A DNA stretch of 64,000 nt from Gammaproteobacteria bacterium (lineage in GTDB: Bacteria; Pseudomonadota; Gammaproteobacteria; Eutrophobiales; Eutrophobiaceae): NCBI GenBank assembly GCA_965202685.1, contig OZ241853.1:27381-91380 (forward strand), in the 5' to 3' direction. A model generated the notes under the pieces. It did not search any database, was not told the DNA's origin, and saw only the letters and a list, made by a program, of their open reading frames with translations. The translations under genes were made by a program, and so were the position numbers. The number at the start of each line of letters is the position of its first letter. Position 1 is the stretch's first letter. This document shows positions 41,029-60,818 of this stretch, in pieces.

Positions 41029-41078
41029 TAGAGTCTTGCGAATCTTTTTTGCGATTCATGCGAAAGATTCATGTACAT
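41029..41078 (+). repeat. left terminal inverted repeat with TGCGA(A/T) transposase-site-like iterons
   Basis: tagagtcttgcgaatcttttttgcgattcatgcgaaagattcatgtacat. It contains tGCGAATC, tGCGATTC and tGCGAAAGATTC. Confidence 0.85.
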
Positions 41079-41252
41079 GCCACTTGACATGGTGCAATTA
41101 TCTTTGATTTTTGCGGGGGGAACTGAGGGGGCAGGACCGCCAGCAGAGTTGCTGGCGGGGTCAGTCGCCGGGGGCGGCAGGGCCGCCGGCAGAGTCGCTG
41201 GCAGTGGTGCCGGGGGATGGCGAACTGACAATTAGTCGGCGGGGGAGGTGGG

Positions 41253-41780
41253 TCAGTCGCTGGGGGGCGCCCAGAAGGAATCGGCAAGGGTAGCGGTCAG
41301 CAATCTTTTCACGGCCGCGGTGGTCGTGGCGGCGTTGATGGCGGTTTTTTGAGTTTGATACAACCCCCGCAACCGGTCGCGCTCGTTGTTCTGAGCCGCT
41401 GTCTCGCCATCGCGCAAGCGCAGTAAAATTTCGGCATCCAAACCACTCACGCCGTAGTTCGCCGTGATTTTGTTTTGACAAAAAGCATGGATCTGGGCGA
41501 TAGCCAGGTTCTTGGCCTCCGCAAGTTGCGCAAGGGGCAGGGCCGCTTGAAGCTCGGCCCAGGTGGGCTTGGCGCTGGCGGCGGGGTCAACAGCTTGCCC
41601 ATCGTAGTTTGGCACGCCCGGCGGGTTCCAACGATAAGCGTTCCAGGTGTCGGCTGTGAAATTTGGAACACCGCCGCCCGCCACCTCACCTGGCGTCAAC
41701 CCGTACGGCAAGACAAGTGGCGGGGTTTGAGATAGCAAGTATTGCAAAGCTAAATTGAATTCTATTTTTGTCATGTCCAA
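41253..41780 (-). CDS. phage protein distal to the host-specificity protein (tail-fibre accessory position)
   Basis: 175 aa. Its start abuts the stop of the J-like gene. No family was recognised. Confidence 0.5.
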   Translation of the reverse strand: MDMTKIEFNLALQYLLSQTPPLVLPYGLTPGEVAGGGVPNFTADTWNAYRWNPPGVPNYDGQAVDPAASAKPTWAELQAALPLAQLAEAKNLAIAQIHAFCQNKITANYGVSGLDAEILLRLRDGETAAQNNERDRLRGLYQTQKTAINAATTTAAVKRLLTATLADSFWAPPSD

Positions 41781-44700
41781 TCAACTCGGCCCTTTTATGC
41801 CATAAACTCTGTAGATAGAGCCAGTCTCGTCGCGGTTCTCGCCACGAATGTAGATCGTTCTCGAGTTGGAAGCTCTCCAAACATGAAAAGTAAGAGTGGT
41901 GCTGTCATTTCGCCCGGTTCCAATATGGCTTTTGTTCGGATTTCCGGTCGGCCCGGCTGAGGTGCCAACCGCCATTCTCGCGCCAGGCGCCAACCCGATT
42001 GAATACCAGGTGGCAGACTGTCCGAAAAACAACACCCACGGCCAGTCGGCCAGTGATTTTGTCCTTGCAATGCTTAAGGCCTGGATCCGTGTGCCGTTCG
42101 GGTCGGCCCACTCCGCGCTTCCCGCCCAAAGCTCTGTCACATTGAAAAGATCAGCCGAGATATGATTAGCCTGAATCGTTCCTTCGATGTCAGCGTCTCG
42201 AACTCGCAAATTCAATGCGGAGAGGCTTTGGACAAAGATTTGCCGCGCCGTGACTGAATTCGGAAACAGGACGCTGCCGGGAATCACCAGGTCAATCTTT
42301 ATCCAGCGCGTTCCGTTCCAGGTTCGCATCTCCCAAAATTTAGGATTCGATTTCGAGTTTGCGAGAGTCACGACGTCCGTCAGCACATTGTCGCCCGTCG
42401 TCAGCCGGTTCGCTTCCGCGTCCGACCAGGCGGTGCCGGTCCAGTTCAAATTGTAGTAAGTCGCCGCGCCGCGCCGCACATCCGCGTGCTGGTTGTACAA
42501 CACGGGCGCGCTCCAGGCGGTCCACGAACCCGTCTTGCCACTCCGGTTCGACACCCATTCGTATTTCAGCGCAGAGGTCACCCCCGCCGGCCGGCTCGTC
42601 CAGCCCGTCGGATTATTGCCCACCGGCAAGGTGGGCGAGACGGCGGATGCCGTGCGCCGGTAGATGAATTGCACGCCGGGGCCGGGCACCGGGGCCGGGA
42701 TCTCCGGGGGGTCCGGGATGGGCTGGTCTCGGGGCAAAGTAGTCACGGTCGCCGACGCCCAGCTGCTGGCGTTGCCGCTGGCGTCCAGGTGGCGCGCAAA
42801 CACTTTCAGGTTTTCTGCCGCCGCCAAGTCCAGGCGCGAAAATACGGTGCCTTTCACCGTCCCTCGCAAAATCGCCTGGGCACCATCTTCGTCTCCTAGT
42901 GTTTGGGCGCCGTCGCGCAGTTCGGTTATGGAGTAGTCTGGCTCTTCGGGTTTGTCCCAAAGCGCCGTCCAGCCGCCGCGCACTGGCAACACCCTCAAAC
43001 CCGCCGGCGCGTCCGGCGCGATTTTGTCTCCAGCCAGGGTGTATCCGCAGGTGTGTTCCGGCCCTGCCGGCGCCACCAGCGAGCCCGGCACTACCACGAT
43101 CTCCAGGCTCCCGTAGGGTTGATCAATCCAACTCGCGCTGGTTTGCGATTCATCCAGCACCGCCACCACCCGCCAGCGCTCCGCCACCGGCGCCGGCTCC
43201 CCCGCCTTGCGCTTCGGCGTCCGCCGGGCGCGGATCACCCCGCCGCGCCAGTCCCCCGCCACGGTCAAGGTGGCGGTGATCTCATTTGCGAAGCCATCCG
43301 CCACCTTGATCTGCTTTTCAGACAAGACGCACGCGACCACCCGCGGCCCCCGATACTTCAAATCTGGCAGGGGGTCTGTCAGGTCCAGGTCCGCGGCCTC
43401 GTAGTATTCCGCCACCTCGTCAATCGCCGTGAAGCGATAGCGGTCCATGGACCGAGGCTCAATCTCGATAATCTTCAGTTTGCGCGGCGGGTTCTCCGCG
43501 CCGTAGTGCCGCCACAGCACATCGCCCGCCACCACGCCCTTCTCCACCGGCGCCGCGGCCAAGCCGCCGTTGTCTGGCACGCCCGGCAACGGGGTCTGCA
43601 ACACCGGCCGGCTGGTTGCGCCAGCGCCGCCGTCCGGGTGCGTAACCACGCTGGTGTGCAAAGTTCCATCCAGCAGGCGGAAGGTCATGTAGTTGACCTC
43701 CGCGTCAATGTTGACATCCTGGTTCAGCGCCGGCGACGCCGCCGTCCCGCCCGGTCGCAGGCGTCCCGTCGTGCCGCCGCTCAGCAAATCCGAGGTCACT
43801 TGCACCACATCGCCGCGCCCTATGGTCAGCCCCTCAGGCCCCATCTCCCAGGTGATCCGCCGGCGGTGATACTTCTGCCGCGCCGCGATTAAATTCGTCT
43901 CCTCCTTCGCCTGCGCCCGGCTCACAATGCCTTGCAGCGTCACCGTCGCCGTCCGCGACGGCGCGGTCACGCCCGCCTTCAGCCGCCGCAACTCCGCCGG
44001 TTGCCAGTCAAAATCCGGGTCTATGTATCGAACGACAATCTCATCCGCCAACCTGCCGTCCGCGTAATTCACTTCCATTGTCCCGGCGATGATGTTTCCT
44101 GGCGTGATCATCGCGGTCGGCGCCAAGCCCGCCTGGTCAAACACCACGCCGAGTTTGCCGCTGGCCCAGCTCGCCGACGCCCGCCCGCACCGGCAAATCA
44201 TGTTCAACACATCGGCGATGCTTTGCGACCCGGTCAACACTGTGTCGCACTTCAAGCCCTCCGCCGCGCACCACACGCGCCAGGCGCGGATGGAGGTTTC
44301 ATCAATCCGAGTGTCCGGCAACCCCAGGCCCGCCACCAGTCGCCCGTCGGCCCGCACGCCCTTCACAAACCACCGGAAGATGTCCGCCGGGTTGCTGGTA
44401 ATTTGATTGGCGGACGACCACGCCGAACCGCTCCAGGTTGGAACCTTTTGCTTCACCAACGCGGACAGCCGCTCAATGCGCCCCTGCAATTGCCCGCTGG
44501 CTTTGATCTTCAATTCCAGCCGCGTCCGCCCCGTCGCGTCCGCCGTGTTCGCCTGGAAAGTTCGCAACGCGGTCCAGGTCACGCCCTGGTCCGTAGTGCG
44601 ATCCGCCTTGCTCTCCCGGCTGTTTAGCGCCGCCTTGCGCTTCATGCGCACGTCCCACTTCTTCGTGTGGTCGGTCAAATCCACACCCACCGTCTTGCGC

Positions 44701-45752
44701 ACCGCATCCGTCGCGCTGTTGCTCAGTGTCTCGGTGGTTCGCGTCGGCGTTAGCCAGTTCGGATCAGTGCCATGTTCCTTCCACTCAATTTGGATCGCAA
44801 CTCGCCGCTCTTCCCCCTCCCCGTTTTTCTTCCTGCCGAAAAAAACGCCGACAAAATCCAACTCCAGCCGTTTCGCCTTCTCCTCGCTAGTCCGCGAGAC
44901 CCAATCCCCATAGGCGTTTGTCGCGGCGGTCGCGCCCGGGTGCGGCAACAGCCCCCCGGCGCTCGTTTGCACATCCCCCGCCAGCAGCGTCACCGCCTGG
45001 CCTGGCCGCCGAATCTCATCATCCACATCAGCGTAGGCGCTTAACAAGGTGTCGCCGATCTTAATCTCGCTGATGTCTAAATCGCCGACCCCAAAATCAA
45101 ACAGCTGAAAGAGGTACTGATCGTCGCCGATGAACTGGGTGTATTCTTGCGCCGTCAGATCCGGGAACACCCGGTGCGTCCCCAGCGCCAACATCGCCGG
45201 CTCGTAAGGCCGCGCCTGGTTGGAGCCGCCATGCAAGGAAAACACCGACCGCCCCGGCTCCCCGGCGTCCGGCAACTCCACGGGAAACAGCGCGTTAACG
45301 ACAAGCCCGCCGATGACTTTGGCCCCCGCCACCAGCGCCGCCTTGCCCAGGCTCAACCCCACCGGCCCCAGGTGCAAAGACAATGTAAGCACAGTGATGG
45401 CGGTGATGATCTCAAACGGATCGCTGTCCCCGCCGCCCTGGACCACCGCCCGCGCCTCCACGATCTGTCCCGGCAACACCAGCCGCCGGGCCCATTCGTC
45501 CCGCGCCACTCTTTCGCCATCCACCCGCGCCGCCACCGGCCCGCCGCTTAACGCCATCCCGCCCTGGCGCAACACCTCCGCCAGGCTCGCGCCTTCGTCC
45601 GGCACCACCGCCACTGACTGCCGCCGCCCATCGGAAGTGATCGGGTGCGGCCAAAAGTCAACCAGGGCTCCCGTCTCAGGGGCCGTCGCAACCAACGCCT
45701 TGTCCTCAGGCTTAGGCGCCGCCGCGCCCACCGCCTTGTCTTTCTTCTTCAC
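41781..45752 (-). CDS. phage host-specificity / central tail fibre protein (lambda J / GTA g15-like), with a gpI-like N-terminal module
   Basis: About 1323 aa from GTG 45752 (GTGA overlap with the upstream stop). SVFSLHGGSNQARPYEPAMLALGTHRVFPDL resembles a J N-terminal block. The size and position after the NlpC/P60 gene fit. A hydrophobic DPFEIITAITVLTLSLHLG segment precedes it. Confidence 0.8.
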   Translation of the reverse strand: MKKKDKAVGAAAPKPEDKALVATAPETGALVDFWPHPITSDGRRQSVAVVPDEGASLAEVLRQGGMALSGGPVAARVDGERVARDEWARRLVLPGQIVEARAVVQGGGDSDPFEIITAITVLTLSLHLGPVGLSLGKAALVAGAKVIGGLVVNALFPVELPDAGEPGRSVFSLHGGSNQARPYEPAMLALGTHRVFPDLTAQEYTQFIGDDQYLFQLFDFGVGDLDISEIKIGDTLLSAYADVDDEIRRPGQAVTLLAGDVQTSAGGLLPHPGATAATNAYGDWVSRTSEEKAKRLELDFVGVFFGRKKNGEGEERRVAIQIEWKEHGTDPNWLTPTRTTETLSNSATDAVRKTVGVDLTDHTKKWDVRMKRKAALNSRESKADRTTDQGVTWTALRTFQANTADATGRTRLELKIKASGQLQGRIERLSALVKQKVPTWSGSAWSSANQITSNPADIFRWFVKGVRADGRLVAGLGLPDTRIDETSIRAWRVWCAAEGLKCDTVLTGSQSIADVLNMICRCGRASASWASGKLGVVFDQAGLAPTAMITPGNIIAGTMEVNYADGRLADEIVVRYIDPDFDWQPAELRRLKAGVTAPSRTATVTLQGIVSRAQAKEETNLIAARQKYHRRRITWEMGPEGLTIGRGDVVQVTSDLLSGGTTGRLRPGGTAASPALNQDVNIDAEVNYMTFRLLDGTLHTSVVTHPDGGAGATSRPVLQTPLPGVPDNGGLAAAPVEKGVVAGDVLWRHYGAENPPRKLKIIEIEPRSMDRYRFTAIDEVAEYYEAADLDLTDPLPDLKYRGPRVVACVLSEKQIKVADGFANEITATLTVAGDWRGGVIRARRTPKRKAGEPAPVAERWRVVAVLDESQTSASWIDQPYGSLEIVVVPGSLVAPAGPEHTCGYTLAGDKIAPDAPAGLRVLPVRGGWTALWDKPEEPDYSITELRDGAQTLGDEDGAQAILRGTVKGTVFSRLDLAAAENLKVFARHLDASGNASSWASATVTTLPRDQPIPDPPEIPAPVPGPGVQFIYRRTASAVSPTLPVGNNPTGWTSRPAGVTSALKYEWVSNRSGKTGSWTAWSAPVLYNQHADVRRGAATYYNLNWTGTAWSDAEANRLTTGDNVLTDVVTLANSKSNPKFWEMRTWNGTRWIKIDLVIPGSVLFPNSVTARQIFVQSLSALNLRVRDADIEGTIQANHISADLFNVTELWAGSAEWADPNGTRIQALSIARTKSLADWPWVLFFGQSATWYSIGLAPGARMAVGTSAGPTGNPNKSHIGTGRNDSTTLTFHVWRASNSRTIYIRGENRDETGSIYRVYGIKGPS

Positions 45753-46207
45753 AGCCACCGGTAAAACCCCGTCAAAGTCAACTGCCGCTCCGCCAAACAA
45801 TCTATCGGATGCCGCGCGACGCCCATCCCCGCCAGGCAATGCAACACGCAAGTCGCCAACGGCAACACCGCCACCACGCCAATGTGATGACCCAAGGACA
45901 GCCGCCGTCCCGCCGCCTTCATCAGCGCGATGTCGCCATCCCGAGGGGCCTCCCCCGTTGCGTTGGATAGCCGGCGACCCAGTTCGCCCGTCAACTGTTC
46001 AATTTGCCGGTCCCGCGCCCGCACGCCTTCCTCATGGCTCGGCAACGCCACCGCTCGCCCAAACTCCGCCTGCGCCACTTCCACCACCAGATCGGCGCAA
46101 TCAAACTCCCCCCGCAAGTAGGGCCGCCCTAAATACTTGTCCGACCAGTGCGCCCCTGCGCCATCCCCCGGCTTGACCGCCTGCGCCGCCACCCAACCGC
46201 CGGCCAT
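45749..46207 (-). CDS. NlpC/P60-family tail peptidase (lambda K / GTA g14-like)
   Basis: 152 aa. GEFDCADLVVEV is the candidate catalytic Cys and GHHIGVVA the candidate His. It overlaps the upstream stop by 1 nt. Confidence 0.7.
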   Translation of the reverse strand: MAGGWVAAQAVKPGDGAGAHWSDKYLGRPYLRGEFDCADLVVEVAQAEFGRAVALPSHEEGVRARDRQIEQLTGELGRRLSNATGEAPRDGDIALMKAAGRRLSLGHHIGVVAVLPLATCVLHCLAGMGVARHPIDCLAERQLTLTGFYRWL

Positions 46208-46680
46208 CAGAACAACCCCGGCGAATGATCCGGATCGTGCCGGATCTGCACCGCCGGACGGTGCAACATCGGGTCAAATCCCAGCCGCGCCGACACGCTC
46301 TGCGTCGACACCTGCATGCCGACCACATCGAGTTCCACGGACCACTCAATCACATCGTCCACCACCTGCATCAACTTCATCACCGCGCCGTTGCCGCCAT
46401 CGCTTAATTCAACCCACTGCGTCAGCACATTGCCCACATTGTCAATCACCAACTCAGCCCGCGGGACCTGGCCGTCGGCATCGTCCGCCAGTCGCGCCCT
46501 GAACCGGGCCGCGACAAAATTGTTGCCATCAATAGTGTGATTTTTCGTGTCGTTGACCGCCCGCGCCGGCGCAGTCACATCCGGGTGCGTGATCTCCAGC
46601 GCCGTCAACACAGGCGCCTCCGGCGTCCCGGCGCGGCTCGCCTGGTCAAACCGATCAGATGTCGAAGACAGGTCCGGCAT
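46207..46680 (-). CDS. minor tail protein (lambda L-like position)
   Basis: 157 aa: LTALEITHPDV...FVAARFRARLADDADGQVPRAELVIDNVG resembles the DUF1833/minor tail family as I remember it. The assignment rests on position. Confidence 0.55.
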   Translation of the reverse strand: MPDLSSTSDRFDQASRAGTPEAPVLTALEITHPDVTAPARAVNDTKNHTIDGNNFVAARFRARLADDADGQVPRAELVIDNVGNVLTQWVELSDGGNGAVMKLMQVVDDVIEWSVELDVVGMQVSTQSVSARLGFDPMLHRPAVQIRHDPDHSPGLF

Positions 46681-46685: not shown

Positions 46686-48005
46686 TCAGGGCGCCGCCGC
46701 GCCGCCGCGGGTGGTGAAAAAATCAGAAAGAAACCCCGTGTTGCCGGCGCCGGCCGCGTTCCAGACCACCGCCACATCTATCGGCGCGCGCTGGAATGCC
46801 GCGCCTATCAAATTATTTGAAAACCAGCGCGGAGACTGATTATGACTAAGATTCCCGCTGTATGGTTCCGATGTATCAGCGTCTCCAACCACTATTTTTG
46901 CGGCCGCTCCGCCCCAAGCCGCGATGAACGCCAGCCCCCGCCGCGCCGCCGCCGTCAAATGCGGCCCCGCCACATCGCCGCTGGCTTCCCCTGGGGCAAT
47001 CAAACGAATTCGGAAGAAATTTGATGTCCGGAACTCCAGGGTGCTGAGATGCGCCGCGCCGCCGCCCACGATGAATTTGCCCGGCAGGCTCCCGCCCTCC
47101 TGTTGCACCCCCGGCGGCCAACCGGTCATAATGCGGTTTGCCCCGCCCTGGCCCACCGCTTGCAAGAAGAAGGGCAATCTGTAGCGCCAATAAACCCTGC
47201 TGGCGTCTCCCAACGCCACCTCCGGGTCGAAAATCGACCGCCCCACATTCGCCTTCACCTCCACCGGCGCCGGCGTCTCGAGCGTCAAGGTCGCCTCCCA
47301 CCGCGCCAGGCCCGCTCGCGTCCCCGCCTGGCGCAACGCCACGCCGCCATAGCCCCCCGCGATCCGCGCCCGCCACGCGCCGCCATCCGCCGACGGCAAC
47401 CAAATCCATCCCATCCGGTTGTTTTTCAGCCAATGCAAAAATTCAAACAAGCGATCATCGTCCACCACCGCCGTCAGCCGCTGGGTGCGCCACGGCGCAT
47501 CTTCCCGCGCCGCCTGCCGCGCCACGCCCGCCCCCTGCAAACCCGTGCGCTCAGCCTGCAAAGTCCCCCCCAGGGCCAGGTCGCTCTTAATCTGGGCGTA
47601 ATGCGGCCAAAAAATCAGATCGCTCTTGCGCGTTGCCCGCGGCCGCATCTCAATCTCCATCTCCGCCATCCATCGCGCCGCGCCGGCCCTCGTCCCCACC
47701 TGCTGATAGCCAACGCGTCCCGCGCCGCCGACAAACCGGCCCTGATAGTCTTGCGGGTTGCCAACGCCCGGCAAGCTCTGCGCCAAAAAGTCAAACCAGC
47801 CCGCGCCTTGCGCGGCCGCCCAGGTCCGAAACGCCTCCAGCCGCCCGTCTTTAATGAGACCCCGCAACCGCCAGGTCTCCACCACCCCGGAACTCGCCGG
47901 GGCCTGCCGCGCCGCGCCATCCTCGAACCGCGCCCTGGTCATATCTCCCGGCGCCGCCCGCATGGAAACCGAGGCGGCTTCCACCCCATCCAGCTCCGTC
48001 ATCAT
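46686..48005 (-). CDS. minor/distal tail protein with two internally repeated modules
   Basis: It is the next minus-strand gene after the tape measure, separated from it only by the plus-strand ORF 48121..48606. The repeated blocks are ...RLEAFRTWAAAQGAGWFDF...GTRAGAARWMAEMEIE and ...RLFEFLHWLKNNRMGWIWL...GTRAGLARWEATLTLE. The start is uncertain (48005, 48020 or 48092). Confidence 0.6.
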   Translation of the reverse strand: MMTELDGVEAASVSMRAAPGDMTRARFEDGAARQAPASSGVVETWRLRGLIKDGRLEAFRTWAAAQGAGWFDFLAQSLPGVGNPQDYQGRFVGGAGRVGYQQVGTRAGAARWMAEMEIEMRPRATRKSDLIFWPHYAQIKSDLALGGTLQAERTGLQGAGVARQAAREDAPWRTQRLTAVVDDDRLFEFLHWLKNNRMGWIWLPSADGGAWRARIAGGYGGVALRQAGTRAGLARWEATLTLETPAPVEVKANVGRSIFDPEVALGDASRVYWRYRLPFFLQAVGQGGANRIMTGWPPGVQQEGGSLPGKFIVGGGAAHLSTLEFRTSNFFRIRLIAPGEASGDVAGPHLTAAARRGLAFIAAWGGAAAKIVVGDADTSEPYSGNLSHNQSPRWFSNNLIGAAFQRAPIDVAVVWNAAGAGNTGFLSDFFTTRGGAAAP

Positions 48006-48120
48006 CGCCGCCGCCAACATGGTCAGAACAACCACAACAGCCACGCCGGGGCCGCCAACGCCAAAAACCCGCCCATCAGCGCCCCTTGACAACCCCCGCC
48101 CTGTGCGATGTACTCAACCC

Positions 48121-48606
48121 ATGTTGCGCCTCCTCGCCCTGTCGCTGCTCGCCCTGGCCGCGCCCCACGCCATTGCCGAGCAAGTCCCTTTCTGCCAGAT
48201 GGTCCTGAAGCGGATGGAGATGGTGGAGTCGGAGCAGGACCTGGAGCAGGTCCTGGAGCTGATGAAGTCGGCCAAGGACCGAGACCTTCACCCGGACGTA
48301 GCCGAAGCACTCCGCGGGCTGGAGGAAGCACTCCGCAAGACTGATCCCGGAACCGCCGTGCGGAGGGTAAAAGAGTGGTACAGGTACAAGAGGACGCCCA
48401 AACCGCGCTACTATGTGCCGCTCCCGCTCTCCCGGGAATTGCTGAACGGCACCGTGAACCCCTGCGACAGCGCCTACGCATCGTGTCCGCCGGAGCTGGA
48501 GAACATCTATGATAGGTTGAGCAGTGCCCGGCGCCACGACGATCAATCGAATCTCGAATACTATCAGCGCAAGCTCCGTCTTTATTATGAGTACTACCGG
48601 CCCTGA
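48121..48606 (+). CDS. secreted hypothetical protein; opposite-strand insert (moron-like) inside the tail operon
   Basis: ATG 48121 gives the signal peptide MLRLLALSLLALAAPHAIA, then a helical, charged body, 4 Cys and a Tyr-rich C-terminus YYQRKLRLYYEYYRP; 161 aa. It is the in-frame tail of track ORF 47758..48606. Confidence 0.6.
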   Translation: MLRLLALSLLALAAPHAIAEQVPFCQMVLKRMEMVESEQDLEQVLELMKSAKDRDLHPDVAEALRGLEEALRKTDPGTAVRRVKEWYRYKRTPKPRYYVPLPLSRELLNGTVNPCDSAYASCPPELENIYDRLSSARRHDDQSNLEYYQRKLRLYYEYYRP

Positions 48607-48612
48607 CGCCGC

Positions 48613-49668
48613 TCATCCCGTCCGCCTCCCCAGGCTGTAAGCCTGTTCCAACGCCTGGCTCAGCGGCCCCCGCCGCGCGATGTCATCCAACGCCACATTC
48701 ACCACCAGCCGCCCCCCGTCCGCCTCGGCCCGTTGCTCCACCACCTCCTGCTGAGTCGCCCCCCGGTTCTCCACCGTCACTTGCACCTGTTGCGGCGGCC
48801 CCCCGGCACCCTGCGCCAGGGCCAACACCGTCTCGCCGCTCGCCAGCGGGGTCAACATCTCCTGCCCCAGCCGCCGTTGCGCCGCGCCGCTGACCGCCGC
48901 GCGCAACATAGCCTGCAACGCGTCGCCGAATCCGCCGCCTTCGTTGCCAACCCGAAACTGTTGCGCCCCGCCGCTGAACACTGCGCCCAACACAGCCCGC
49001 AACGCGTCGCCGGGTCCGCCGCCTTCGTTGCCGACCTGAAACTGTTGCAACTGTTGCAACTGCGCATCCGCCCCGCATGAACAATCCCTGATGCGATCCA
49101 ACAGCTCCGACTGCGTCTGCAATTCAGTCAATAGCTTCGCGCATTCACCAACAACTTCCTTCACCCGGGTTTCCGTATCTATCTGCGCCTGGACATTCTC
49201 CCCGCAGGTCTTGTCCAACTCCTTCAACTCCGTCACCACATCAGCAGGCCCGCCCGGCGCCGGCAGCCCCAAGCGCCCCCGCAACGCCATCCCCAGTTTG
49301 TGCGCTATAGGGCCGGTCACCCCGATCTGAATCACCGCCCGCGCCGTGTCCGCCGCCAGGTCACTCAAAAATTGCTTGAGAGAAAACTTGCCCTTGGTGA
49401 TCAACCGCACCAGCTGATTTTCAATGTTCTTGAATGCCCGTTTGAACGCCTCTTCCACATGTTGAGCCGCATTGGTCGCCTCGCTGGCATACTTTTCCAG
49501 TCCGCGCAACAAGCCGTGAACCCCCTCCCGTGAATTCTCCGAGGTCACCACGCTCTGTTGCCGCGCCTCCGCCGCATTCTCCGCGTTGGCGGCAACCTTG
49601 TCGATGTCGACCTTGCGCGACTTGCCGTCGACGGTGAGCTCGAGGTTGATTTTCAGATTGTCAGGCAT
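48613..49668 (-). CDS. tail tape measure protein (short, 351 aa)
   Basis: It follows the G/GT chaperone pair. The N-terminus is helical (NAAQHVEEAFKRAFKNIENQLVRLI) and there is an internal 28-aa duplication. Confidence 0.7.
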   Translation of the reverse strand: MPDNLKINLELTVDGKSRKVDIDKVAANAENAAEARQQSVVTSENSREGVHGLLRGLEKYASEATNAAQHVEEAFKRAFKNIENQLVRLITKGKFSLKQFLSDLAADTARAVIQIGVTGPIAHKLGMALRGRLGLPAPGGPADVVTELKELDKTCGENVQAQIDTETRVKEVVGECAKLLTELQTQSELLDRIRDCSCGADAQLQQLQQFQVGNEGGGPGDALRAVLGAVFSGGAQQFRVGNEGGGFGDALQAMLRAAVSGAAQRRLGQEMLTPLASGETVLALAQGAGGPPQQVQVTVENRGATQQEVVEQRAEADGGRLVVNVALDDIARRGPLSQALEQAYSLGRRTG

Positions 49669-49933
49669 CAGACGAATTAACCAGCCGCCGCGCTTCCGCT
49701 TCCATGAAGCGCAACTTGTCGAACAGCTCGGGGGAACGCTCCAACGCCATGAACCGCGCCGCCGCCCACGCGCCCGCGTAATCCAGCCCCAACAAATGCC
49801 CGCTCATGGCCGCGAACCGCCACTGGGTGCCGCACGCCAAAAACAGCCGCGCCGCATCCGCGTTCTCCGGAAAAACATGGATCTCGCCGCCGCGCCCACT
49901 GACCCAGGCGCGGACGACACTCAGGAGTTTCCC
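49661..49933 (-). CDS. -1 frameshift extension of the tail chaperone (gpGT analogue)
   Basis: The slippery site G_GGA_AAC (49933-49927) lies in the zero frame. The -1 frame is open for 90 codons (GKLLSVVRAWVSGRGGEIHVFPENADAARLFLACGTQWRFAAMSGHLLGLDYAGAWAAARFMALERSPELFDKLRFMEAEARRLVNSSDA) and stops at 49663-49661, overlapping the tape-measure ATG. Confidence 0.75.
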   Translation of the reverse strand, partial: GKLLSVVRAWVSGRGGEIHVFPENADAARLFLACGTQWRFAAMSGHLLGLDYAGAWAAARFMALERSPELFDKLRFMEAEARRLVNSSDA

Positions 49934-52513: not shown

Positions 52514-53029
52514 ATGGATTGCGTAAATATCACAAACCTTATAGATCGCCTGGCTCAGTTCGCCTCCCTGTCCCCGTCGTACATCAGCGTCAAATGCAGC
52601 GGCGACAGCAAATTTTACAAACGACTGAAAGCAGGCGGCGATGTGCGATTGTCCACCTTCAACCGCATCGTCCAATGGTTCTCCGACAACTGGCCCGCCG
52701 ACCTCTTCTGGCCGGCGGACCTCCCCCGCCCGGCCCCGTCCCCGGACAGCCCGGCGGCCCAGGCCCGCGCCGCCGACCCCGCCAACGACCTGAACGCGGA
52801 TGGCGAGATCGCCAACCTTGCCGCCTGGTGCCGCCGCAACGCCTACGAGCCCAACGACGCCCGCTCTGTCATCCGCCGCTACGGCGCCGGCGGCCCCCGG
52901 GAGGGCCGCTATCCCCGCCGCGGCTCCGCCGCGCAATTCGTCCTGGAGCAACTAATCAAAACCGGAGACCGCCGCTTTGCCACCTATCACCGCTATGACC
53001 GCATCGCAAACTCGGCGGGCCTGCGCTGA
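52514..53029 (+). CDS. early protein in the Ner/Cro position, putative DNA-binding N-terminus
   Basis: 171 aa: ITNLIDRLAQFASLSPSYISVKCSGDSKFYKRLKAGGDVRLSTFNRIVQWF is HTH-like. It is the first gene of the rightward operon. Confidence 0.5.
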   Translation: MDCVNITNLIDRLAQFASLSPSYISVKCSGDSKFYKRLKAGGDVRLSTFNRIVQWFSDNWPADLFWPADLPRPAPSPDSPAAQARAADPANDLNADGEIANLAAWCRRNAYEPNDARSVIRRYGAGGPREGRYPRRGSAAQFVLEQLIKTGDRRFATYHRYDRIANSAGLR

Positions 53030-53172
53030 GTCGCAAATCTCGCCGGGCGCCATAGTCCCGGCGCGATCATCGTGGCGGTTGCCCGCTTCCACGATGGCCG
53101 GCGGCCACCCCACTCCTCATGGTCGCCGGCGCCTTTTTCCCACCCCCCGCATCATCCATCTCGGAGAAAACC

Positions 53173-53715
53173 ATGAACGAAGAGAACGACTCCTTGCGCC
53201 TGGACAAAATAGAAGACCAGGCCCGCGAATACGCGGCGGCGAACGCCGCCACCCTGCGCCTGGCGGACGACCTGAAGGCCGCCATCGCCGCCGTCTGCGC
53301 TAAACAGGTCGGCAAGATCAAGACGGCGGCCCAGGCCGCCGCCGTTGAAAGAGAAACATTGATGTCGTTGCTGGCGGACGCCGCCGACCTGTTCGCATCG
53401 CCGCGCCGCTCGCTGACCGTGGATGGCGTGCGGGTGGGCTGGAAGAAAGAGCGCGGCAAGGTGGTCATCACCGACGAGGCCGCCGTCGTCCAGCGCATCC
53501 GCGAGCGCCTGCCGGAAGACCAGGCCGAGTTGCTCATCCGCCGCACTGAGCGAGTCCACAAGCCTGGCGTCTATGACCTGAGCGCCGGCGACCTGAAGCG
53601 GTTGGGCATCCAGATCGAAGCCGACGCGGACGCGCCCTTCATCAAAGACATCGAAGTCCCCATTGACAAGTTGATCGCCGGACTCATGGACGAGTACGCG
53701 GAACAGAGCCAATGA
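53173..53715 (+). CDS. gam: host-nuclease inhibitor Gam-like protein
   Basis: ATG 53173 is preceded by GGAGAA. An N-terminal coiled coil is followed by TVDGVRVGWKKERGKVVITDEAAVVQRIRERL...IRRTERVHKPGV...GIQIEADADAPFI. This parallels the Mu Gam layout (LVTGDVSWRVRPPSVSIRG...RFIRTKQEINKEAI). Confidence 0.7.
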   Translation: MNEENDSLRLDKIEDQAREYAAANAATLRLADDLKAAIAAVCAKQVGKIKTAAQAAAVERETLMSLLADAADLFASPRRSLTVDGVRVGWKKERGKVVITDEAAVVQRIRERLPEDQAELLIRRTERVHKPGVYDLSAGDLKRLGIQIEADADAPFIKDIEVPIDKLIAGLMDEYAEQSQ

Positions 53716-54014
53716 GCAAGGAAAGCTACGAAAACAAAAGCCAGCGCCACCTGATGGTGGTGGTGGAGGCCCTGGCGGCGACCCCGCTGGCGCCGCAAAC
53801 CACGGAGGAAATTCATCGCCAGATAAATGGCCCCGTGTCAAAAGACCAGGTCTGGCGCGCCTTGCAGAACCTGGAGTCCCAGGGCTGGGCCGAGAAGCGC
53901 GGCGGCGGCTGGGCGTTAAGTCCCCGCCTGACGCGCCTGTCGGAGCGTTTGCGCATCGACATCGCCCAGGCCCATCGCGCGTACTTGGCCCCGCCGGAGC
54001 TGACTGCGCCATGA
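53712..54014 (+). CDS. small winged-helix DNA-binding protein
   Basis: 100 aa: LMVVVEALAATPLAPQTTEEIHRQINGPVSKDQVWRALQNLESQGWAEKRGGGWALSPRL. Confidence 0.55.
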   Translation: MSKESYENKSQRHLMVVVEALAATPLAPQTTEEIHRQINGPVSKDQVWRALQNLESQGWAEKRGGGWALSPRLTRLSERLRIDIAQAHRAYLAPPELTAP

Positions 54015-54036
54015 ATGACGCCCTCCCCGCCGCGCC

Positions 54037-54867
54037 ATGACCCCGGCGCACTGGGCCGTCCCCGCGCTAAACGCTTCCGACCTGGCGGAGCGCATCAATG
54101 GTTTGCGCGCCGCCACTTGGCAAATCGCGCGGCAATCCGAGGCCCAGATCATGGAGATGCTGTGGGAGTTGCGGCACAAACACTTCACGGGGGAGGACGC
54201 CGCGCCCACCGATTCACGCTCGCCGGACCAACGCTTTCAGGCCTTCGTTGAGGCCCGCATTCCCTGGCTGCCGCCGGCGGACGCGCAACGCATGGTGGAC
54301 ACTTGGGACGCCGCCCGCAAGGATCGCAGTTTGCTGGAATTCGCCCGCGCCAAGCCCGGCGAGGCCATGCGCTTTTTCCCCGTGTTGGCCGCTGGCGGGG
54401 CGGACGCCTTCCCCGGCGACAAGGATGTGGCGGAGATCCTGGCCATGCCCCCCCGCAAGCGCAACAAGAAGTTGCGGGAACTGATCGACGCCGCGGACAG
54501 CGACGGCAAACGCCGGCCTGAAGATGAGGAGCTCATCAAATCCCTGCGGGCGGAGCGGGATGAGTTGGCGGCGGCCCGCCGGGCCGGGCAAGACCGAGAC
54601 GCCTGCTTCAACGCCCTGACCAAATACCTGGACAAGCTCAACGCGCTGGCGGCGGACTTCAGGATAAAAGCCACCCTCGAGACCAGCGAGTTTCTCGCAG
54701 CGTACGGTCCCGGCCTGAAAAAACACTGCCCCAAAATCATAAAGAGCCGCATCGACGACATTCGCGGCACGGTCAGCGCCACCCAGGCGGACGCCGAGCA
54801 TTTGCTGGAGCAGTGGCTCCACTTCGACTTGTGGGACAAACAAGACGCGGATGGCGGGAGCGACTGA
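54037..54867 (+). CDS. phage early protein, unknown function
   Basis: 276 aa with normal amino-acid composition. It is tightly packed in the early operon. Confidence 0.55.
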   Translation: MTPAHWAVPALNASDLAERINGLRAATWQIARQSEAQIMEMLWELRHKHFTGEDAAPTDSRSPDQRFQAFVEARIPWLPPADAQRMVDTWDAARKDRSLLEFARAKPGEAMRFFPVLAAGGADAFPGDKDVAEILAMPPRKRNKKLRELIDAADSDGKRRPEDEELIKSLRAERDELAAARRAGQDRDACFNALTKYLDKLNALAADFRIKATLETSEFLAAYGPGLKKHCPKIIKSRIDDIRGTVSATQADAEHLLEQWLHFDLWDKQDADGGSD

Positions 54868-54868
54868 G

Positions 54869-55093
54869 ATGCGCGCCGCGAAACTCGAGGTCTCCGCCCG
54901 CCTGCAGCGCGTCGCGAACCTGTTGGGAGACGGGGAGGAGCATTCCACCCGCGAGATCGTTCACAAATGCAATGTGTGCGCGGTCAATTCCGCCGTGTCC
55001 GAGTTGCGGGCCAATGGCCTGAACATCGTTTGCCGGCAACGCCCCAGCAGAAACGGCAGCCACCACTTCACCTATCAGTTGCTGGAGGACTGA
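54869..55093 (+). CDS. small wHTH protein preceding the transposase
   Basis: ATG 54869, 2 nt after the upstream stop: MRAAKLEVSARLQRVANLLGDGEEHSTREIVHKCNVCAVNSAVSELRANGLNIVC. Confidence 0.55.
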   Translation: MRAAKLEVSARLQRVANLLGDGEEHSTREIVHKCNVCAVNSAVSELRANGLNIVCRQRPSRNGSHHFTYQLLED

Positions 55094-56759: not shown

Positions 56760-56763
56760 AACC

Positions 56764-57621
56764 ATGAAAATTTTGACCCGAAGACACTTCAAACTGCCCG
56801 CCGATCCCTGGGCCGGCTGGACTTGCGACACCGCCGATCAGAGCCGGGTGGGCGACCTGATCAAAGCGGCGGTGGCGGGCGATCTGTTCGTTTCAATAAT
56901 CGGCCCTCGCGGCAGCGGCAAAACCCGGGCCGCCCGCGCCGCCCTGGCCAACTGCGGCGACGGGGCGCGGGTGGTGGAGCCCTTGCGGTTGACCAGGGAC
57001 AAGTTGCACATGGGGGACATCGAGACCGCCATCTGTTTCAGCCTCTCGGATGAGTCCCCCCGGCGCTCTGGCGAGGCTCGCTCGCGCCAGACGCGCCGCA
57101 TTCTTGGCGCCGCCAGCCGCGGCAAGAAAGTCGTTTTATTCATCGACGACGCCCATGTTTTGCACAGCCAAACCCTGCGGGCCTTGAAACGCCTGCGGGA
57201 GCTCAGCTTTGCCGGGCGGGCGCCCTTGCTTAGCGTCATCCTGGCGGCCCAGCGGGACAAGACCGCAAGCATCCCGGAGGTGGGCCTGCGCTCTGACGCG
57301 CTGACCCTGGGCGGCTTGGCGAAGGCGGAAGTCTCGGCGGCTTTGCGCGCCGCCGGCCTGTTGGATGGCGTCCTGACCCACGAGGCGGAACTGGCGCTCG
57401 CCGCCGCGCCCGCCGCTGGCAACTGGCTGGACCTGCGCCAGCTGGTGGACGACTGCCTGTTCCAGGCCCTGGCCGCCGGGGCGCGGCAGGTGGATGCCAT
57501 CCATGTCCGCGCCGCTTTGCGCGCCGCCCCGGCCGCAACCTCCGTCCCGGCCACAGACGCGGGCGACCCCGCGGCCGGGGCCGCCCTGGATGAGTACCTG
57601 GCGCAACGGGAGGCGGCCTGA
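56764..57621 (+). CDS. AAA+ transposition ATPase (MuB analogue)
   Basis: Walker A IIGPRGSGKTRA and Walker B VVLFIDDAH. It lies directly after the transposase. Confidence 0.8.
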   Translation: MKILTRRHFKLPADPWAGWTCDTADQSRVGDLIKAAVAGDLFVSIIGPRGSGKTRAARAALANCGDGARVVEPLRLTRDKLHMGDIETAICFSLSDESPRRSGEARSRQTRRILGAASRGKKVVLFIDDAHVLHSQTLRALKRLRELSFAGRAPLLSVILAAQRDKTASIPEVGLRSDALTLGGLAKAEVSAALRAAGLLDGVLTHEAELALAAAPAAGNWLDLRQLVDDCLFQALAAGARQVDAIHVRAALRAAPAATSVPATDAGDPAAGAALDEYLAQREAA

Positions 57622-57629
57622 GGGCGTCC

Positions 57630-58115: not shown

Positions 58116-58116
58116 C

Positions 58117-58527
58117 ATGAACGACCTGGAGCTCACCGCCGCGCCCTTGTTTGCCGCCTTGGTGGACGCCGTCCAACGCTGCCTGGAATCCCCAGGCTAT
58201 CGCGCCCTGGCGACCCGGCCCGCGCCCGCGGGTTCCGCTTCCCTGGCGCAACGGCAAGCGCGGAGGATCGCCGCCGCGATCTGCGACGCCAGCCACGACG
58301 AACTGGAGGGCTTTCCCCCCTTCGCCGAGTTGCGTTCAGTGATCCACATCCAACGCCGCAACGCCTGCATCGTTCAGGACTTCACCGGCCACAACTACGG
58401 CGACTTGGCGCGGCAGTGGAGCCTGTCCACGCGGCAAGTGCGGCGCATAGTGGCGGGCGCCCGAAAAAATAGTGACAGGCCCCCCCTGCAAATGTCACAA
58501 CCTAAAACCCATAATCGCCGCCCATGA
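58117..58527 (+). CDS. mor: Mor/C-family transcriptional activator
   Basis: 136 aa with the C-terminal HTH GHNYGDLARQWSLSTRQVRRIVAG. Its position before the lysis genes fits Mor. Confidence 0.75.
   Translation: MNDLELTAAPLFAALVDAVQRCLESPGYRALATRPAPAGSASLAQRQARRIAAAICDASHDELEGFPPFAELRSVIHIQRRNACIVQDFTGHNYGDLARQWSLSTRQVRRIVAGARKNSDRPPLQMSQPKTHNRRP
58462..58500 (+). promoter_or_regulatory. late-promoter-like dyad element (copy 1) upstream of the lysis operon
   Basis: cgaaaaaatagtgacaggccccccctgcaaatgtcacaa contains GTGACA-N15-TGTCAC. CATAAT follows 11 nt later (58510-15), and ATG 58524 follows 8 nt after that. Confidence 0.6.
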
Positions 58528-59030
58528 ACCACGAGCTCAATCAGCCGCCCCAGGGTCAGCTCAGCGCCCACTTCAGCCTGGCGGAGTTTTTGCACAGCGA
58601 CCTGGCCCTGCGCGAGGGCATAGACAACGACCATCCGCCGGAAGCGGCCCTCCAGGACATGCGCATGTTGTGCCTGAATGCGCTTGAGCCGCTGCGCAAG
58701 GCCCTGGGCGACCGGCCCCTGCGAATCACCAGCGGCTATCGTTGCCCGCAACTGAACAAGCTGTTGAAGAGTGCGGACACCAGCCAGCACCTGTTGGGCC
58801 AAGCGGCGGATTTCCAAGCGCCGGGGATGGATTTGCTGGAGGTGGCGAAAGTGGCGGCCGCGCGCAAGCTGGTTCATTTCGATCAGCTGATCTACGAGGG
58901 CCGCTGGCTGCACATATCGTGGGCAAAGCAACCGCGCCGGCAACTGCTCACCGCCGGCTTCGCCGTGACGCCGCGGCAACGCGGCTACCTTGCCGGCATC
59001 CCCGGCGTAAGACAAACCGAGCGAGGGTGA
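58524..59030 (+). CDS. peptidase M15-family endolysin (L-alanyl-D-glutamate/D-Ala-D-Ala peptidase type)
   Basis: FSLAEFLHSD..., ITSGYRCPQLNKLLKSADTSQHLLGQAADF, ...WLHISW (H-x6-D...H zinc-site pattern). Confidence 0.8.
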   Translation: MNHELNQPPQGQLSAHFSLAEFLHSDLALREGIDNDHPPEAALQDMRMLCLNALEPLRKALGDRPLRITSGYRCPQLNKLLKSADTSQHLLGQAADFQAPGMDLLEVAKVAAARKLVHFDQLIYEGRWLHISWAKQPRRQLLTAGFAVTPRQRGYLAGIPGVRQTERG

Positions 59031-59035
59031 TCGCC

Positions 59036-59293
59036 ATGTTCGTTTTCCTGCGAGAAAAAATCAATCAATGCGCGGCCCGGGTGGGCGCGTTTGTCTGCAA
59101 CGCCGGCTTCCTGTTCATGGCGGCGCTGGTCTGGTTGCTCTCCGCCTGGCGCATGGTCTTGACCGCCACTGGCGCCATCGCCTTCGTCTCCTGGATGTGG
59201 GCCTTGGCGGGCGTCGGCGCGGCCCTGTTTGCCGCGCTGATTGTCATCCTGGCAGGCGCGCTGGTGTGGCTGGTTCACACCAATCGCATCTGA
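59036..59293 (+). CDS. small 3-TM membrane protein (holin/antiholin candidate)
   Basis: The in-frame ATG at 59036 in track ORF 58742..59293 gives MFVFLREKINQCAARVGAFVCNAGFLFMAALVWLLSAWRMVLTATGAIAFVSWMWALAGVGAALFAALIVILAGALVWL. Confidence 0.55.
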   Translation: MFVFLREKINQCAARVGAFVCNAGFLFMAALVWLLSAWRMVLTATGAIAFVSWMWALAGVGAALFAALIVILAGALVWLVHTNRI

Positions 59294-59302
59294 CAAACCC
59301 TC

Positions 59303-59797
59303 ATGCTCGCGCAACTCTTTGCTGGCGGCTTGGCGGGCGTCCTGGACGGCGCCCGCAAGATAGTCGACGAGTTTCACCTCTCCGGCGAGGAGAAAAACCA
59401 GTTCATGTTGCAAATGGAAGCGCTGTTGCAACAGCGCGACCGCGAGATAGAGCGCACCATCCGCTCGGAACTCAAAGCCAAGTCAGACATCGTGGTGGCG
59501 GAGCTTAGCCAGGGCGACAACTACACCAAACGGGCCCGCCCCACTTTGATTTACTTCGGCATGGCCCTGATCTTTTTCAACTACTGCCTTGTGCCTTTGG
59601 CGCAAACCTTCACTGGCGCGGACATCGCGCCCTTCGAACTGCCAGGGGAGTTCTGGCTCGCCTGGGGCGGCGCGGTGAGCGTGTACGCCCTGGGCCGAAG
59701 CGCCGAAAAACGCGGCATCCGCAACCCCGCAACCTCCGCCATCACCGGCAGCGGCGCGGCCCCGGTCAACAAACTGGTGGAAAAACTTTTGGACTGA
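59303..59797 (+). CDS. 3-TM holin family protein (GTA/phage release type)
   Basis: 164 aa: IVDEFHLSGEEKNQFMLQMEALLQQRDREIERTIRSE...YTKRARPTLIYFGMALIFFNYCLVP. Confidence 0.7.
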   Translation: MLAQLFAGGLAGVLDGARKIVDEFHLSGEEKNQFMLQMEALLQQRDREIERTIRSELKAKSDIVVAELSQGDNYTKRARPTLIYFGMALIFFNYCLVPLAQTFTGADIAPFELPGEFWLAWGGAVSVYALGRSAEKRGIRNPATSAITGSGAAPVNKLVEKLLD

Positions 59798-59800
59798 AAA

Positions 59801-60151
59801 ATGGAGCAAGAACTCATATTGTGGTTTTGGCGCGGCCTGTTGACACTTGGCATGGGCGGCTTGGTGCGCCTGCTTATATGGCAGCGCAAGATCGAGCGCG
59901 AGCTGGCGGAGCAAAAAGCCAAGATCGCCAGCGCCGCCGCCCTCGGCGCGGAAGTCAAGGCGGCTTCAACAAAAGTGACCACCCTGGAAGCCAACATGGC
60001 GGGAATGGCGGCGCTCAAAGAAGAAGTGATCGCCTGCCACCGCCGGCTGGACGAGGTGGCGGAAACCACCGCCACGCTGACCGGCGAGATGAAGCAGATC
60101 AACAACACCCTGCATTTGATTCAGGAACACCTGATGGGGAAGTCCAAATGA
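59801..60151 (+). CDS. membrane-anchored coiled-coil protein (Mu gp25 / DUF2730-like, or spanin-like)
   Basis: 116 aa with an N-terminal TM helix LILWFWRGLLTLGMGGLVRLLIW, followed by a coiled coil ending in LHLIQEHLM. Confidence 0.55.
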   Translation: MEQELILWFWRGLLTLGMGGLVRLLIWQRKIERELAEQKAKIASAAALGAEVKAASTKVTTLEANMAGMAALKEEVIACHRRLDEVAETTATLTGEMKQINNTLHLIQEHLMGKSK

Positions 60152-60627
60152 ACCCTCCCACACCTCGCAAAGAGCGCCTGCGCAAGGAGGTCCGCCGCGC
60201 CCCGCTGGACCTGTTGGAACAGGCCGCCGGCCACGACCTGAACGCCGCCATGCTGGAGCAATCCGGCGCTCCGCAACGCTCACTCCGCGCCGAACACGGC
60301 CGCAACGCCGCCATCACCGGCATTAACCTGATCTATGCCGCCACCCACCAGTTCGGCGCCAAAAAAGGCCAGTTCGCCAACAAGAAGGGCCGACCCATAC
60401 TATGGGGCGACCTCCCGGCCCGGCCCTTCCTCGGCGTCCACAACCAGGAGCGCAAGCAAATCCGCGCCGCCATCCTCAACCACCTCCGCGCCCGACCAAA
60501 GCGCTCACCCAGATCGCCCGCCACCGCCTCAACGGCAACAACTTCGGCGCCAAAGCCATCCCCATCGTCTGGCAAAACCACCGCGACGATTAGCCCCCGC
60601 CAGCCCCGCCCAGCCACAGGTCAGTAG
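60148..60627 (+). CDS. virion-morphogenesis (Mu G / tail-completion S-like) protein, probably truncated or chimeric
   Basis: ATG 60148 forms an ATGA overlap with the upstream stop. INLIYAATHQFGAKKG...LPARPFLGVHNQERKQIRAAILNHL matches the family core. The N-terminal half is about 40 aa too short, and the C-terminus runs into Pro/Ser/Thr-rich read-through. Confidence 0.55.
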   Translation: MNPPTPRKERLRKEVRRAPLDLLEQAAGHDLNAAMLEQSGAPQRSLRAEHGRNAAITGINLIYAATHQFGAKKGQFANKKGRPILWGDLPARPFLGVHNQERKQIRAAILNHLRARPKRSPRSPATASTATTSAPKPSPSSGKTTATISPRQPRPATGQ

Positions 60628-60768
60628 CGAAACCGCCATCCCCGGCGCCGCGGGCCCTGGCGCCCGCCGTCAAGCAAAACCCACCGCCCCAAAACAACGC
60701 AAGAAACCTCCCAGATCCTTCCCGCGCATAGTCAAAAATCTTTTGATTTTCCGCTTTGCCGCCCGCAA

Positions 60769-60818
60769 ATGTACATGAATATTTCGCGTGAATCGCAAAA
60801 AAGATTCGCAACATTCTA
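60769..60818 (-). repeat. right terminal inverted repeat
   Basis: The reverse complement is tagaatgttgcgaatcttttttgcgattcacgcgaaatattcatgtacat, with 4 mismatches to the left repeat. The inner sequences diverge immediately, so the two are distinct L-type and R-type ends. Confidence 0.85.

Follow-up and report, generated by a model that had tools for sequence, protein, structure and literature searches.

Tailocins and gene transfer agents (GTAs) are the textbook cases of phage domestication. F-type tailocins (F-pyocins, monocins), which are flexible and non-contractile, have no head or packaging genes and comprise a lambda-type set of terminator, tube, G/GT chaperones, tape measure, tip proteins and a J-like protein; GTAs of the RcGTA type keep capsid, portal and terminase. 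Here we describe a Mu-like element of 19,794 bp that shares its head-less tail gene set with the former and, unlike the latter, has no capsid, portal or terminase gene. It lies between host genes in a 64-kb stretch of a gammaproteobacterial genome of the family Eutrophobiaceae (GenBank assembly GCA_965202685.1, contig OZ241853.1, positions 27,381 to 91,380; the window), and is bounded by 52-nt inverted repeats at 41027-41078 and 60769-60820. In a full-text literature search, we came across no account of a tail producer of Mu type that lacks heads, or of a tailocin from a transposable phage that retains its replication engine. With a confidence that falls a little short of even, we read the element as a vertically inherited, tailocin-like derivative of a Mu-like siphophage, which would be maintained by selection and would still use Mu-type replication and late activation.

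The absence of head and packaging genes, claimed in a first-pass annotation of this DNA, was borne out by three kinds of search. PHROG and Pfam profile scans, on which the gene identities given here are based, detected no head or packaging family inside the element, and tblastn of the head proteins of three full-length relatives against the 64-kb window gave no head-protein match at E<0.01. The one significant match in that search was to the N-terminus of a small right-arm open reading frame (ORF; L2_103 amino acids 1-36, E 1e-9). A remnant of the scaffold gene (amino acids 1-13) reached only E 0.9, and was established by DNA alignment to the full-length relative L002.

The arrangement is not confined to one strain. 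Seven further copies with the same head-less synteny were found, and the eight copies, which come from different metagenome samples, fall into type A (window, L031, L035, L038) and type B (L001, L033, L034, L037), with transposases 95-99% and 89-92% identical to that of the window, respectively. Related strains thus carry the head-less form at this site rather than a full-length phage. Copy L037 is complete, with both terminal repeats, an amidohydrolase gene on one side and an S8 subtilase gene on the other. Between the window and L037, synonymous divergence (dS) is 0.29 in the flanking S8 gene and 0.26-0.42 in the genes of the element. As the left junction and the deletion junction are the same and the flank has diverged about as far as the element, the simplest history would be that the element inserted and lost its heads once, in a common ancestor, and then diverged along with its host. 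Recent strain-specific scrambling is excluded, and simple neutral decay looks unlikely.

Furthermore, the genes bear the mark of constraint. In the comparison of the window with L037, which is the pair behind every per-gene ratio of nonsynonymous to synonymous change (dN/dS) unless another is named, 23 of 24 genes have values significantly below 1, the exception being the tape measure (0.79, p = 0.14). Neither pseudogenes nor neutral evolution was seen, and a degraded look is confined to the head scars and the tape-measure core. Wherever the fetched stretch covers them, all tail, early and lysis genes are open and full-length in each copy, except for the tape measure of type B, which is further shortened. 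Pooled dN/dS of the tail genes is 0.33-0.45 for head-less pairs within A, within B and between the two (0.15 for the near-identical pair of window and L038), and that of the early genes is 0.11-0.23. The early genes at 52514..55093 are conserved across the phage family (0.11-0.30), and the lysis block (58524..60151) has pooled values of 0.08-0.23. The window and L031 are 97% identical except across the region from J to the M-like gene, where identity is about 88%, a divergence that would be typical of specificity determinants; the C-terminal part of the J-like protein is strongly diversified among copies.

An alternative that we consider somewhat unlikely is a slowly decaying defective prophage, in which partial selection (on immunity, lysis or a moron) or recombination with infecting full-length relatives would keep ORFs refreshed while the tail genes are functionless. 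Against this, the tail ORFs, with a J gene of 4 kb among them, have stayed intact in eight copies over a dS of about 0.3-0.4, every tail gene except the tape measure has a dN/dS significantly below 1, and the frameshift site, both late promoters and the terminal repeats are conserved. Recombination has restored heads in none of the eight copies, and a second lineage, described below, shows the same long-term retention. The evidence that favours decay is taken up with the deletions and with gene flow.

The layout of the element becomes clear from its relatives, which we compared by a tblastn map and gene tables, using 27 loci from metagenome-assembled genomes (MAGs) of Gammaproteobacteria, Acidobacteriota, Binatia and others, in addition to metagenomic contigs. 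In this family, the leftward arm encodes scaffold, cement, major capsid, gp36, tail terminator, tube, G/GT, tape measure, tip proteins and J, and the rightward arm encodes the early genes, transposase, MuB, GemA, Mor, lysis proteins, DUF2730, gp27, large terminase, Mu portal and Mu F. Full-length L002 has the dyad TAGTGACAT...ATGTCACAA upstream of both the scaffold gene and the endolysin gene, so the late genes of the family form two divergent operons, with the second head module and the tail running leftward from a Mor-type dyad promoter and the early genes, lysis genes and first head module running rightward. Since this divergent layout recurs across the full-length relatives, no inversion is needed to explain the window, and the tail block, which the first-pass annotation had taken to be inverted relative to the canonical order, has the layout native to the whole family. 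The two dyads that the same annotation had noticed before the lysis and tail blocks of the window are both conserved in relatives. Megablast of the element against GenBank phages, a single-protein scan of GTDB genomes and scans of JGI metagenomes each gave no match. A 494-amino-acid class II aminoacyl-tRNA-synthetase-like gene (tRNA_anti-codon and tRNA-synt_2) stands in the early operon of full-length L002 (6292-7776) and L043 (2175-3659) and is absent from the head-less elements.

Set against this layout, the element has suffered three separate deletions, of the second head module, the first head module and the tape-measure core. In the left arm, the dyad promoter and the first ~20 scaffold codons (M-T/K-R-I-A-I-F-K...), homologous to the 5' end of the gene in L002, now lead straight into the start of the tail terminator, and this junction is common to all seven head-less copies in the alignment (A3) that shows it, which comprises every copy but L038. 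The join is in frame in type A; in type B, the stub is a 27-codon leader ending in GTGA, which overlaps the terminator start. In the right arm of the window, a scar combines the N-terminus of a small conserved gene, homologous to L002 16422-16733, with the shortened G-like gene already recognized in the first-pass annotation, which spans positions 65-147 of the 148 in the Phage_tail_S profile. In type B, the small gene is whole and no G fragment is present. These scars bear on a further alternative, that the element is one half of a split functional system whose genes for heads and packaging would be found at another place in the genome, driven by the same Mor-type promoters. The RcGTA is known to be encoded by dispersed clusters, and the window covers 64 kb of a contig of roughly 3 Mb. 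However, both head modules left scars in place (the scaffold stub and the truncated G), which argues for deletion rather than relocation, the 64-kb window holds no head homologue, and the shortened tape measure is ill suited to a tail that delivers DNA. We therefore regard a split system as very improbable.

The third deletion qualifies the earlier claim of a full tail set. All tail genes are present and open in the eight copies, but the tape measure, which has 939-980 amino acids in close full-length relatives and 923 in a distant one, has 351 in the window. Among the copies it has 351 or 323 amino acids in type A and about 200-237 in type B. The deletion is internal, in frame and about 600-700 amino acids long, and all copies keep both conserved termini: an N-terminal MxDNLKxNxELTVD motif and a highly conserved C-terminal stretch of ~100 amino acids. 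The window protein keeps the N-terminal ~14-25 and the C-terminal ~270 amino acids, and aligns to residues 671-938 of the 939-residue tape measure of L039. In lambda, tail length is proportional to tape-measure length. By analogy, the shortened proteins predict tails of roughly 35-55 nm, as against about 150 nm. The other part of the earlier tail claim, an NlpC/P60 minor tail protein, was not detected by PHROG or Pfam among the genes of the window; that domain is present only in L041, a locus of the second lineage.

The ends of the element are well defined, and the inverted repeats reported in the first-pass annotation were confirmed. Their 52-nt arms are 92% complementary, the 22-nt core of the repeat occurs at just two sites in the window, which are the two ends (shuffled sequences give an expectation of 0.00 matches), and the left repeat is identical to that of L037 at 49 of 52 positions. 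The outer edges are the true ends, as homology to other copies breaks off exactly there, and three TGCGAww sub-repeats in the left end are probably transposase-binding sites. We had first suspected outward-facing ends, as the inner repeat ends read TGTACATGAAT and resemble the 5'-TG terminus of Mu. This was rejected, as homology with L001, L033, L034 and L037 runs inward past TGTACATGAAT and halts at the outer CRTAGA, and as the TGCGAww sub-repeats are directed inward, as in Mu. The left flank is an S8 subtilase gene (38040-40961, minus strand), and the right flank is an LPG_synthase_TM gene, whose frame begins near the right repeat, followed by CitG. The left junction, GCATTCCCCCTGGGCCGACCTkG followed by CGTAGAG, is identical in the window, L031 and L037, the three copies for which the left end was fetched and to which all statements on that junction refer. 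On the right, the LPG synthase gene of the window stands against an amidohydrolase gene in type B, of which four copies share one right flank; this difference would be explained most simply by a rearrangement next to the element. A 5-bp target-site duplication is not convincing (CCTTG versus TTGAG in the window; CCTGG versus CCGGG, a 4/5 match, in L037), perhaps through erosion or through rearrangement of the right flank. Two features of the flanks may be recorded here. The proximal S8 subtilase gene, which is the conserved left flank in all lineages (dN/dS 0.65, window versus L037), is the second of two tandem paralogues (35321-37966, 881 amino acids; 38040-40961, 973 amino acids), and a TATAAT-containing stretch lies ~30 bp beyond the right end, ahead of the LPG synthase gene (window 60821-60900).

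Intact ends raise the possibility of a helper-dependent satellite, a natural mini-Mu with its own ends, transposase, lysis genes and tails, which would borrow capsids and terminase from full-length relatives and undergo headful packaging along with neighbouring host DNA. The ends, the transposase and MuB are all intact and under strong constraint, closely related full-length phages share the dyad half-sites, and the full-length phage L043 co-occurs in the sample of L037 and could supply the missing structural genes. Moreover, in L039 (14249-14300), a left terminal repeat of this type has entered the tape-measure gene of a full-length phage about 40 (30-40) amino acids before the end of that gene, with accessory and J genes behind it in inverted orientation. 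This is a genuine transposition junction of element into phage, so elements with such ends are active in the community. The head-less copies themselves tell otherwise: one left junction in the window, L031 and L037, one right flank in four type-B copies, no second insertion site and no clean 5-bp target duplication. The exact terminal-repeat pattern matched just one viral-contig record, and this is the same locus. On balance, we think a satellite distinctly improbable.

Gene flow with full-length phages is the main caveat to reading dN/dS as selection on the head-less element itself, and it belongs with several observations that weigh against our tailocin-like reading. The transposase of full-length L002 nests in the head-less type-B clade, with 94% identity to L037, and the J N-terminus of L037 is 89% identical to a J on the L039 contig, a copy that sits behind the inserted element end and may not belong to the full-length phage. 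Sequence already purified in live phages and imported from them could thus inflate the apparent purifying selection. The terminator, tube and G genes together have a dN/dS of 0.30-0.65 in head-less pairs, compared with 0.20 between full-length L039 and L043, so that the tail genes, although constrained, are relaxed about twofold relative to live phages. The tape measure, shorter by about two thirds in type A and three quarters in type B, evolves at a dN/dS of ~0.8 (0.47 between L039 and L043), and the head-gene scars are eroding independently in types A and B. All the copies whose left end was fetched have one left junction, which gives no sign of current mobility, and, to our knowledge, known tailocins do not keep replication or transposition genes. 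Decay of a defective prophage draws on much of the same evidence, namely the three deletions, the differing erosion of the scars, the relaxed tail and tape-measure genes, and mosaicism with full-length phages; types A and B are intermixed in the tube-protein tree, and full-length L043 shares a sample with head-less L037.

Head loss with retention of the rest happened at least twice. Three loci in Acidobacteriota MAGs (L007, L009, L010) form a second head-less lineage, with transposases 75-90% identical to one another and about 50% identical to that of the window, and their sister loci L022 and L023 are full-length, which implies an independent loss. These loci carry intact transposase, MuB, Mor and M15 endolysin genes and DUF2730. 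Their right side is without terminase or portal, and on the left side fn3-domain genes take the place of scaffold and capsid and are followed by tail terminator and tube. The tube protein of L041, 92% identical to that of this lineage, heads a full lambda-type tail set with a 703-amino-acid tape measure, two M-like proteins, an L-like protein, a K-like protein (JAB and NlpC/P60) and a J of 1839 amino acids. A search for the right end in L007, L009 and L010 found no recognizable repeat, and homology between L007 and L009 stops about 12 bp past the DUF2730 stop codon; the lineage may thus be truncated rather than bounded. Two further observations concern these loci. An IS21-family insertion (IstA/IstB) separates two fn3 genes, and the lineage keeps a Tle1-like phospholipase gene of type VI secretion system kind with a 270-amino-acid partner, both of which follow the portal gene in the full-length sister L023 (insertion and Tle1-like genes: L007 3647-5994 and 14042-15859; L009 9102-11192; L023 19441-21254). 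The position suggests that the Tle1-like pair is a retained toxin module of the MuF region.

Taken together, the domesticated tail-producer reading rests on the parts that are conserved: the transposition engine, the Mor switch, the lysis genes, the tail and its frameshift signal, a J that diversifies, and the two terminal repeats. A replicating, self-lysing producer of tails would require just such a set. The first-pass annotation had offered two explanations. For the first, one inversion plus deletions in a dying prophage, the deletions are real and the inversion is not; nor is the word 'dying' supported, as two lineages that have diverged like their flank share the same head-less structure and left junction, with near-all genes under purifying selection. 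The second, a domesticated producer of particles that still has its transposition ends, is the better supported, although the cut tape measure, the relaxed tail genes and the shared left junction leave it short of proof. A wider proposition, which we entertain with more doubt than trust, is that Mu-like phages have at least twice given rise to vertically inherited head-less elements, selected as producers of short non-contractile tail particles, with induction through replicative transposition and a Mor cascade.

We infer the following course from induction to killing. A switch on the repressor side would free the early operon, and the DDE transposase, the MuB-like ATPase and Gam would replicate the element by transposition from its conserved ends. 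Mor would then turn on the two dyad promoters, one driving endolysin and holin and the other, which now stands directly before the tail terminator, driving the tail genes. Cell lysis would free short flexible tails, for which the 351-amino-acid tape measure implies a length of roughly 50 nm. The released tails would most likely act as F-type tailocin-like particles, with their specificity set by the diversifying J region. The repressor-position gene has a dN/dS of 1.0-2.7 in four of six type-A pairs (the other two are identical or untabulated) and of 0.4-0.8 otherwise, a speed that fits diversifying immunity specificity.

Table 1. Features of the head-less element, in order along the window (aa, amino acids; positions are those of the window)
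Feature	Position	Strand	Support and remarks
Left terminal inverted repeat	41027..41078		5'-CGTAGAGTCTTGCGAATC...; three TGCGAww sub-repeats
Accessory protein, 175 aa, downstream of J	41253..41780	-	No Pfam/PHROG match; dN/dS 0.28
J-like central tail fibre / host-specificity protein, 1356 aa	41781..45851	-	phrog_31 8e-85; Phage-tail_3; dN/dS 0.27-0.29
Minor tail protein, weakly DUF6950-like	45749..46207	-	dN/dS 0.22
Minor tail protein	46207..46680	-	phrog_396; DUF1833 in relatives; dN/dS 0.29
M-position tail-tip protein, 468 aa	46686..48092	-	Homologue of 381-aa gene after the tape measure in full-length L040; dN/dS 0.40
Oppositely oriented ORF (moron), start uncertain	47758..48606	+	Between tape measure and M-like gene; high GC at third codon positions
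Shortened tape measure, 351 aa	48613..49668	-	Tape_meas_lam_C at residues 51-122; dN/dS ~0.8
Tail assembly chaperones G (49921-50262) and G-T (T frame to 49661)	49661..50262	-	dN/dS G 0.17, T 0.24
Tail tube protein, 283 aa	50264..51115	-	phrog_807 4e-29; 89 homologue clusters; dN/dS 0.58
Tail terminator with in-frame ~20-codon scaffold stub (about 51587-51664)	51137..51664	-	PF23840 1e-21
Late-promoter dyad TAGTGACAT-N13-ATGTCACAA, before tail operon	51669..51707		Same dyad precedes scaffold gene in full-length L002
Fast-evolving 167-aa gene at the repressor position	51927..52430	-	Weak helix-turn-helix/antidote match; position conserved in family; dN/dS 0.5-2.7 in head-less pairs
Early gene, phrog_7669 protein	52514-53029	+	PHROG
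Gam	53119-53715	+	PHROG
Regulator	53712-54014	+	PHROG
Early 276-aa protein	54037-54867	+	Conserved across family
Early 80-aa protein	54851-55093	+	Conserved across family
DDE transposase, 552 aa	55101..56759	+	phrog_310; DD35E core; D240 and E276 invariant; dN/dS 0.14
MuB-like AAA+ ATPase	56764..57621	+	phrog_296, AAA_22; dN/dS 0.26
GemA-like protein	57630-58115	+	Pfam GemA in orthologues
Mor late activator	58117-58527	+	Pfam Mor in orthologues
Second late-promoter dyad, upstream of lysis genes	58462..58500		Conserved in relatives
M15 endolysin	58524-59030	+	Lysis block
85-aa protein	59036-59293	+	Lysis block
GTA_holin_3TM holin	59303-59797	+	Lysis block; dN/dS 0.10
DUF2730	59801-60151	+	Lysis block
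Right-arm deletion scar	60148..60627	+	~36-aa N-terminus of small conserved gene fused to C-terminal half of Mu G-like protein
Right terminal inverted repeat	60769..60820		Alignment with other copies

Some entries in Table 1 call for comment. The intact G/GT slippery site of the first-pass annotation is the heptamer GGGAAAC at 49927-49933 on the minus strand, three codons ahead of the G stop and followed by a 90-codon -1 frame with DUF1799, a canonical arrangement; every copy, head-less or full-length, keeps the site as well as the T frame. An ORF at 49677-49970 was rejected as lying in the wrong frame, the true T frame being entered by the -1 shift. The J-like protein has a sub-threshold match to PB4_spike (22.2 bits, cutoff 27), and homologues of the accessory protein come after J in L031, L037 and L039. 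The M-position protein probably starts near 48014. An ORF at 48023-48616 on the minus strand is probably spurious, with a dN/dS of about 1, and the conserved ORF is the one on the opposite strand (47758-48606). The latter has a counterpart called in L031 and lies in a region homologous to the DNA after the tape measure in full-length L043; profile searches assigned it no family and gave a weak MLKL_N-like match only. PADLOC, run on the genes of unknown function, reported no defence family. The interval that separates the tail late promoter from the repressor-position gene (window 51727-51921) is a hot spot for cargo, which holds an RTX (HemolysinCabind) gene in L031 (8183-8929) and L035 (8281-9195) and a 1.96-kb insertion in the IMG/VR copy (L038 about 11589-13548). 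Part of the latter insertion is 92% identical to window 34128-34498, overlapping a 107-amino-acid ORF at 34311-34634.

Elsewhere in the window, a low-GC island at 15176-20189 (47-50% GC, compared with ~63% elsewhere) contains two tandem genes of ~840 amino acids, each an HSDR_N fused to an N6 DNA methylase (Eco57I/MmeI-like), which looks like a duplicated type IIG-like restriction-modification pair. A tRNA-Ser (TGA) at 7997-8086 on the minus strand is the only RNA gene in the window according to Rfam and ARAGORN.

Among described systems, the Mu-like siphophages (B3/D3112-type, RcapMu-type) are alike in Gam, the MuB-like ATPase, GemA, Mor and DUF2730, in the Mu gp27, Portal_Mu, Mu F and gp36 of the full-length relatives, and in terminal inverted repeats with CGAAA-type sub-repeats at the prophage-host junctions. 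The element derives from such phages but is no functional member of the group, being without head genes and without a clean target duplication. It also differs in that the late genes of its family form two divergent operons and that its termini read CRTAGA...TCTAYG, not TG...CA. Its transposase, which gives a profile match to retroviral integrase cores and belongs to a family of ~540-amino-acid proteins with 233 homologue clusters, differs from B3-type transposases, to which the family shows a partial match of 22-35% only, and has no MuA Pfam domains. Laboratory mini-Mu and Mud derivatives resemble the element in having ends with the A and B genes and no heads, and are in principle packaged only by a helper; the element is a natural one that has both its lysis and its tail operon and is found conserved at a single locus. 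cf-PICI satellites share with it an incomplete structural gene set. However, these make capsids and steal tails, whereas the element encodes tails and lacks capsids, and no evidence of its mobilization was found. GTAs are alike in being domesticated, vertically inherited, phage-derived clusters under purifying selection, and share the GTA_holin_3TM family.

Whatever its function, a 20-kb head-less prophage has here been kept intact while its hosts diverged to a dS of about 0.3, and there is a second lineage of the kind. If particles are made, the precise loss of both head modules together with the shrinkage of the tape measure would be a new route of domestication and a natural test of the rule that tape-measure length sets tail length, and phage-tail weaponry would be extended to uncultured bacteria known only from metagenomes. 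The closest comparison is with F-type tailocins, which likewise have their own lysis cassette and activator (here the M15 endolysin, the holin, Mor and the two dyads), occupy a fixed chromosomal locus in related strains and concentrate their recombination or diversification in the fibre region. In contrast to these, and against a defining feature of the class, the element retains replication and transposition functions (the DDE transposase, the MuB-like ATPase, Gam and the terminal repeats, under strong constraint); it also uses a Mor/dyad late switch and has a tape measure reduced to 235-351 amino acids. Should our reading be correct, it would represent a class of tailocin with a retained transposition engine.

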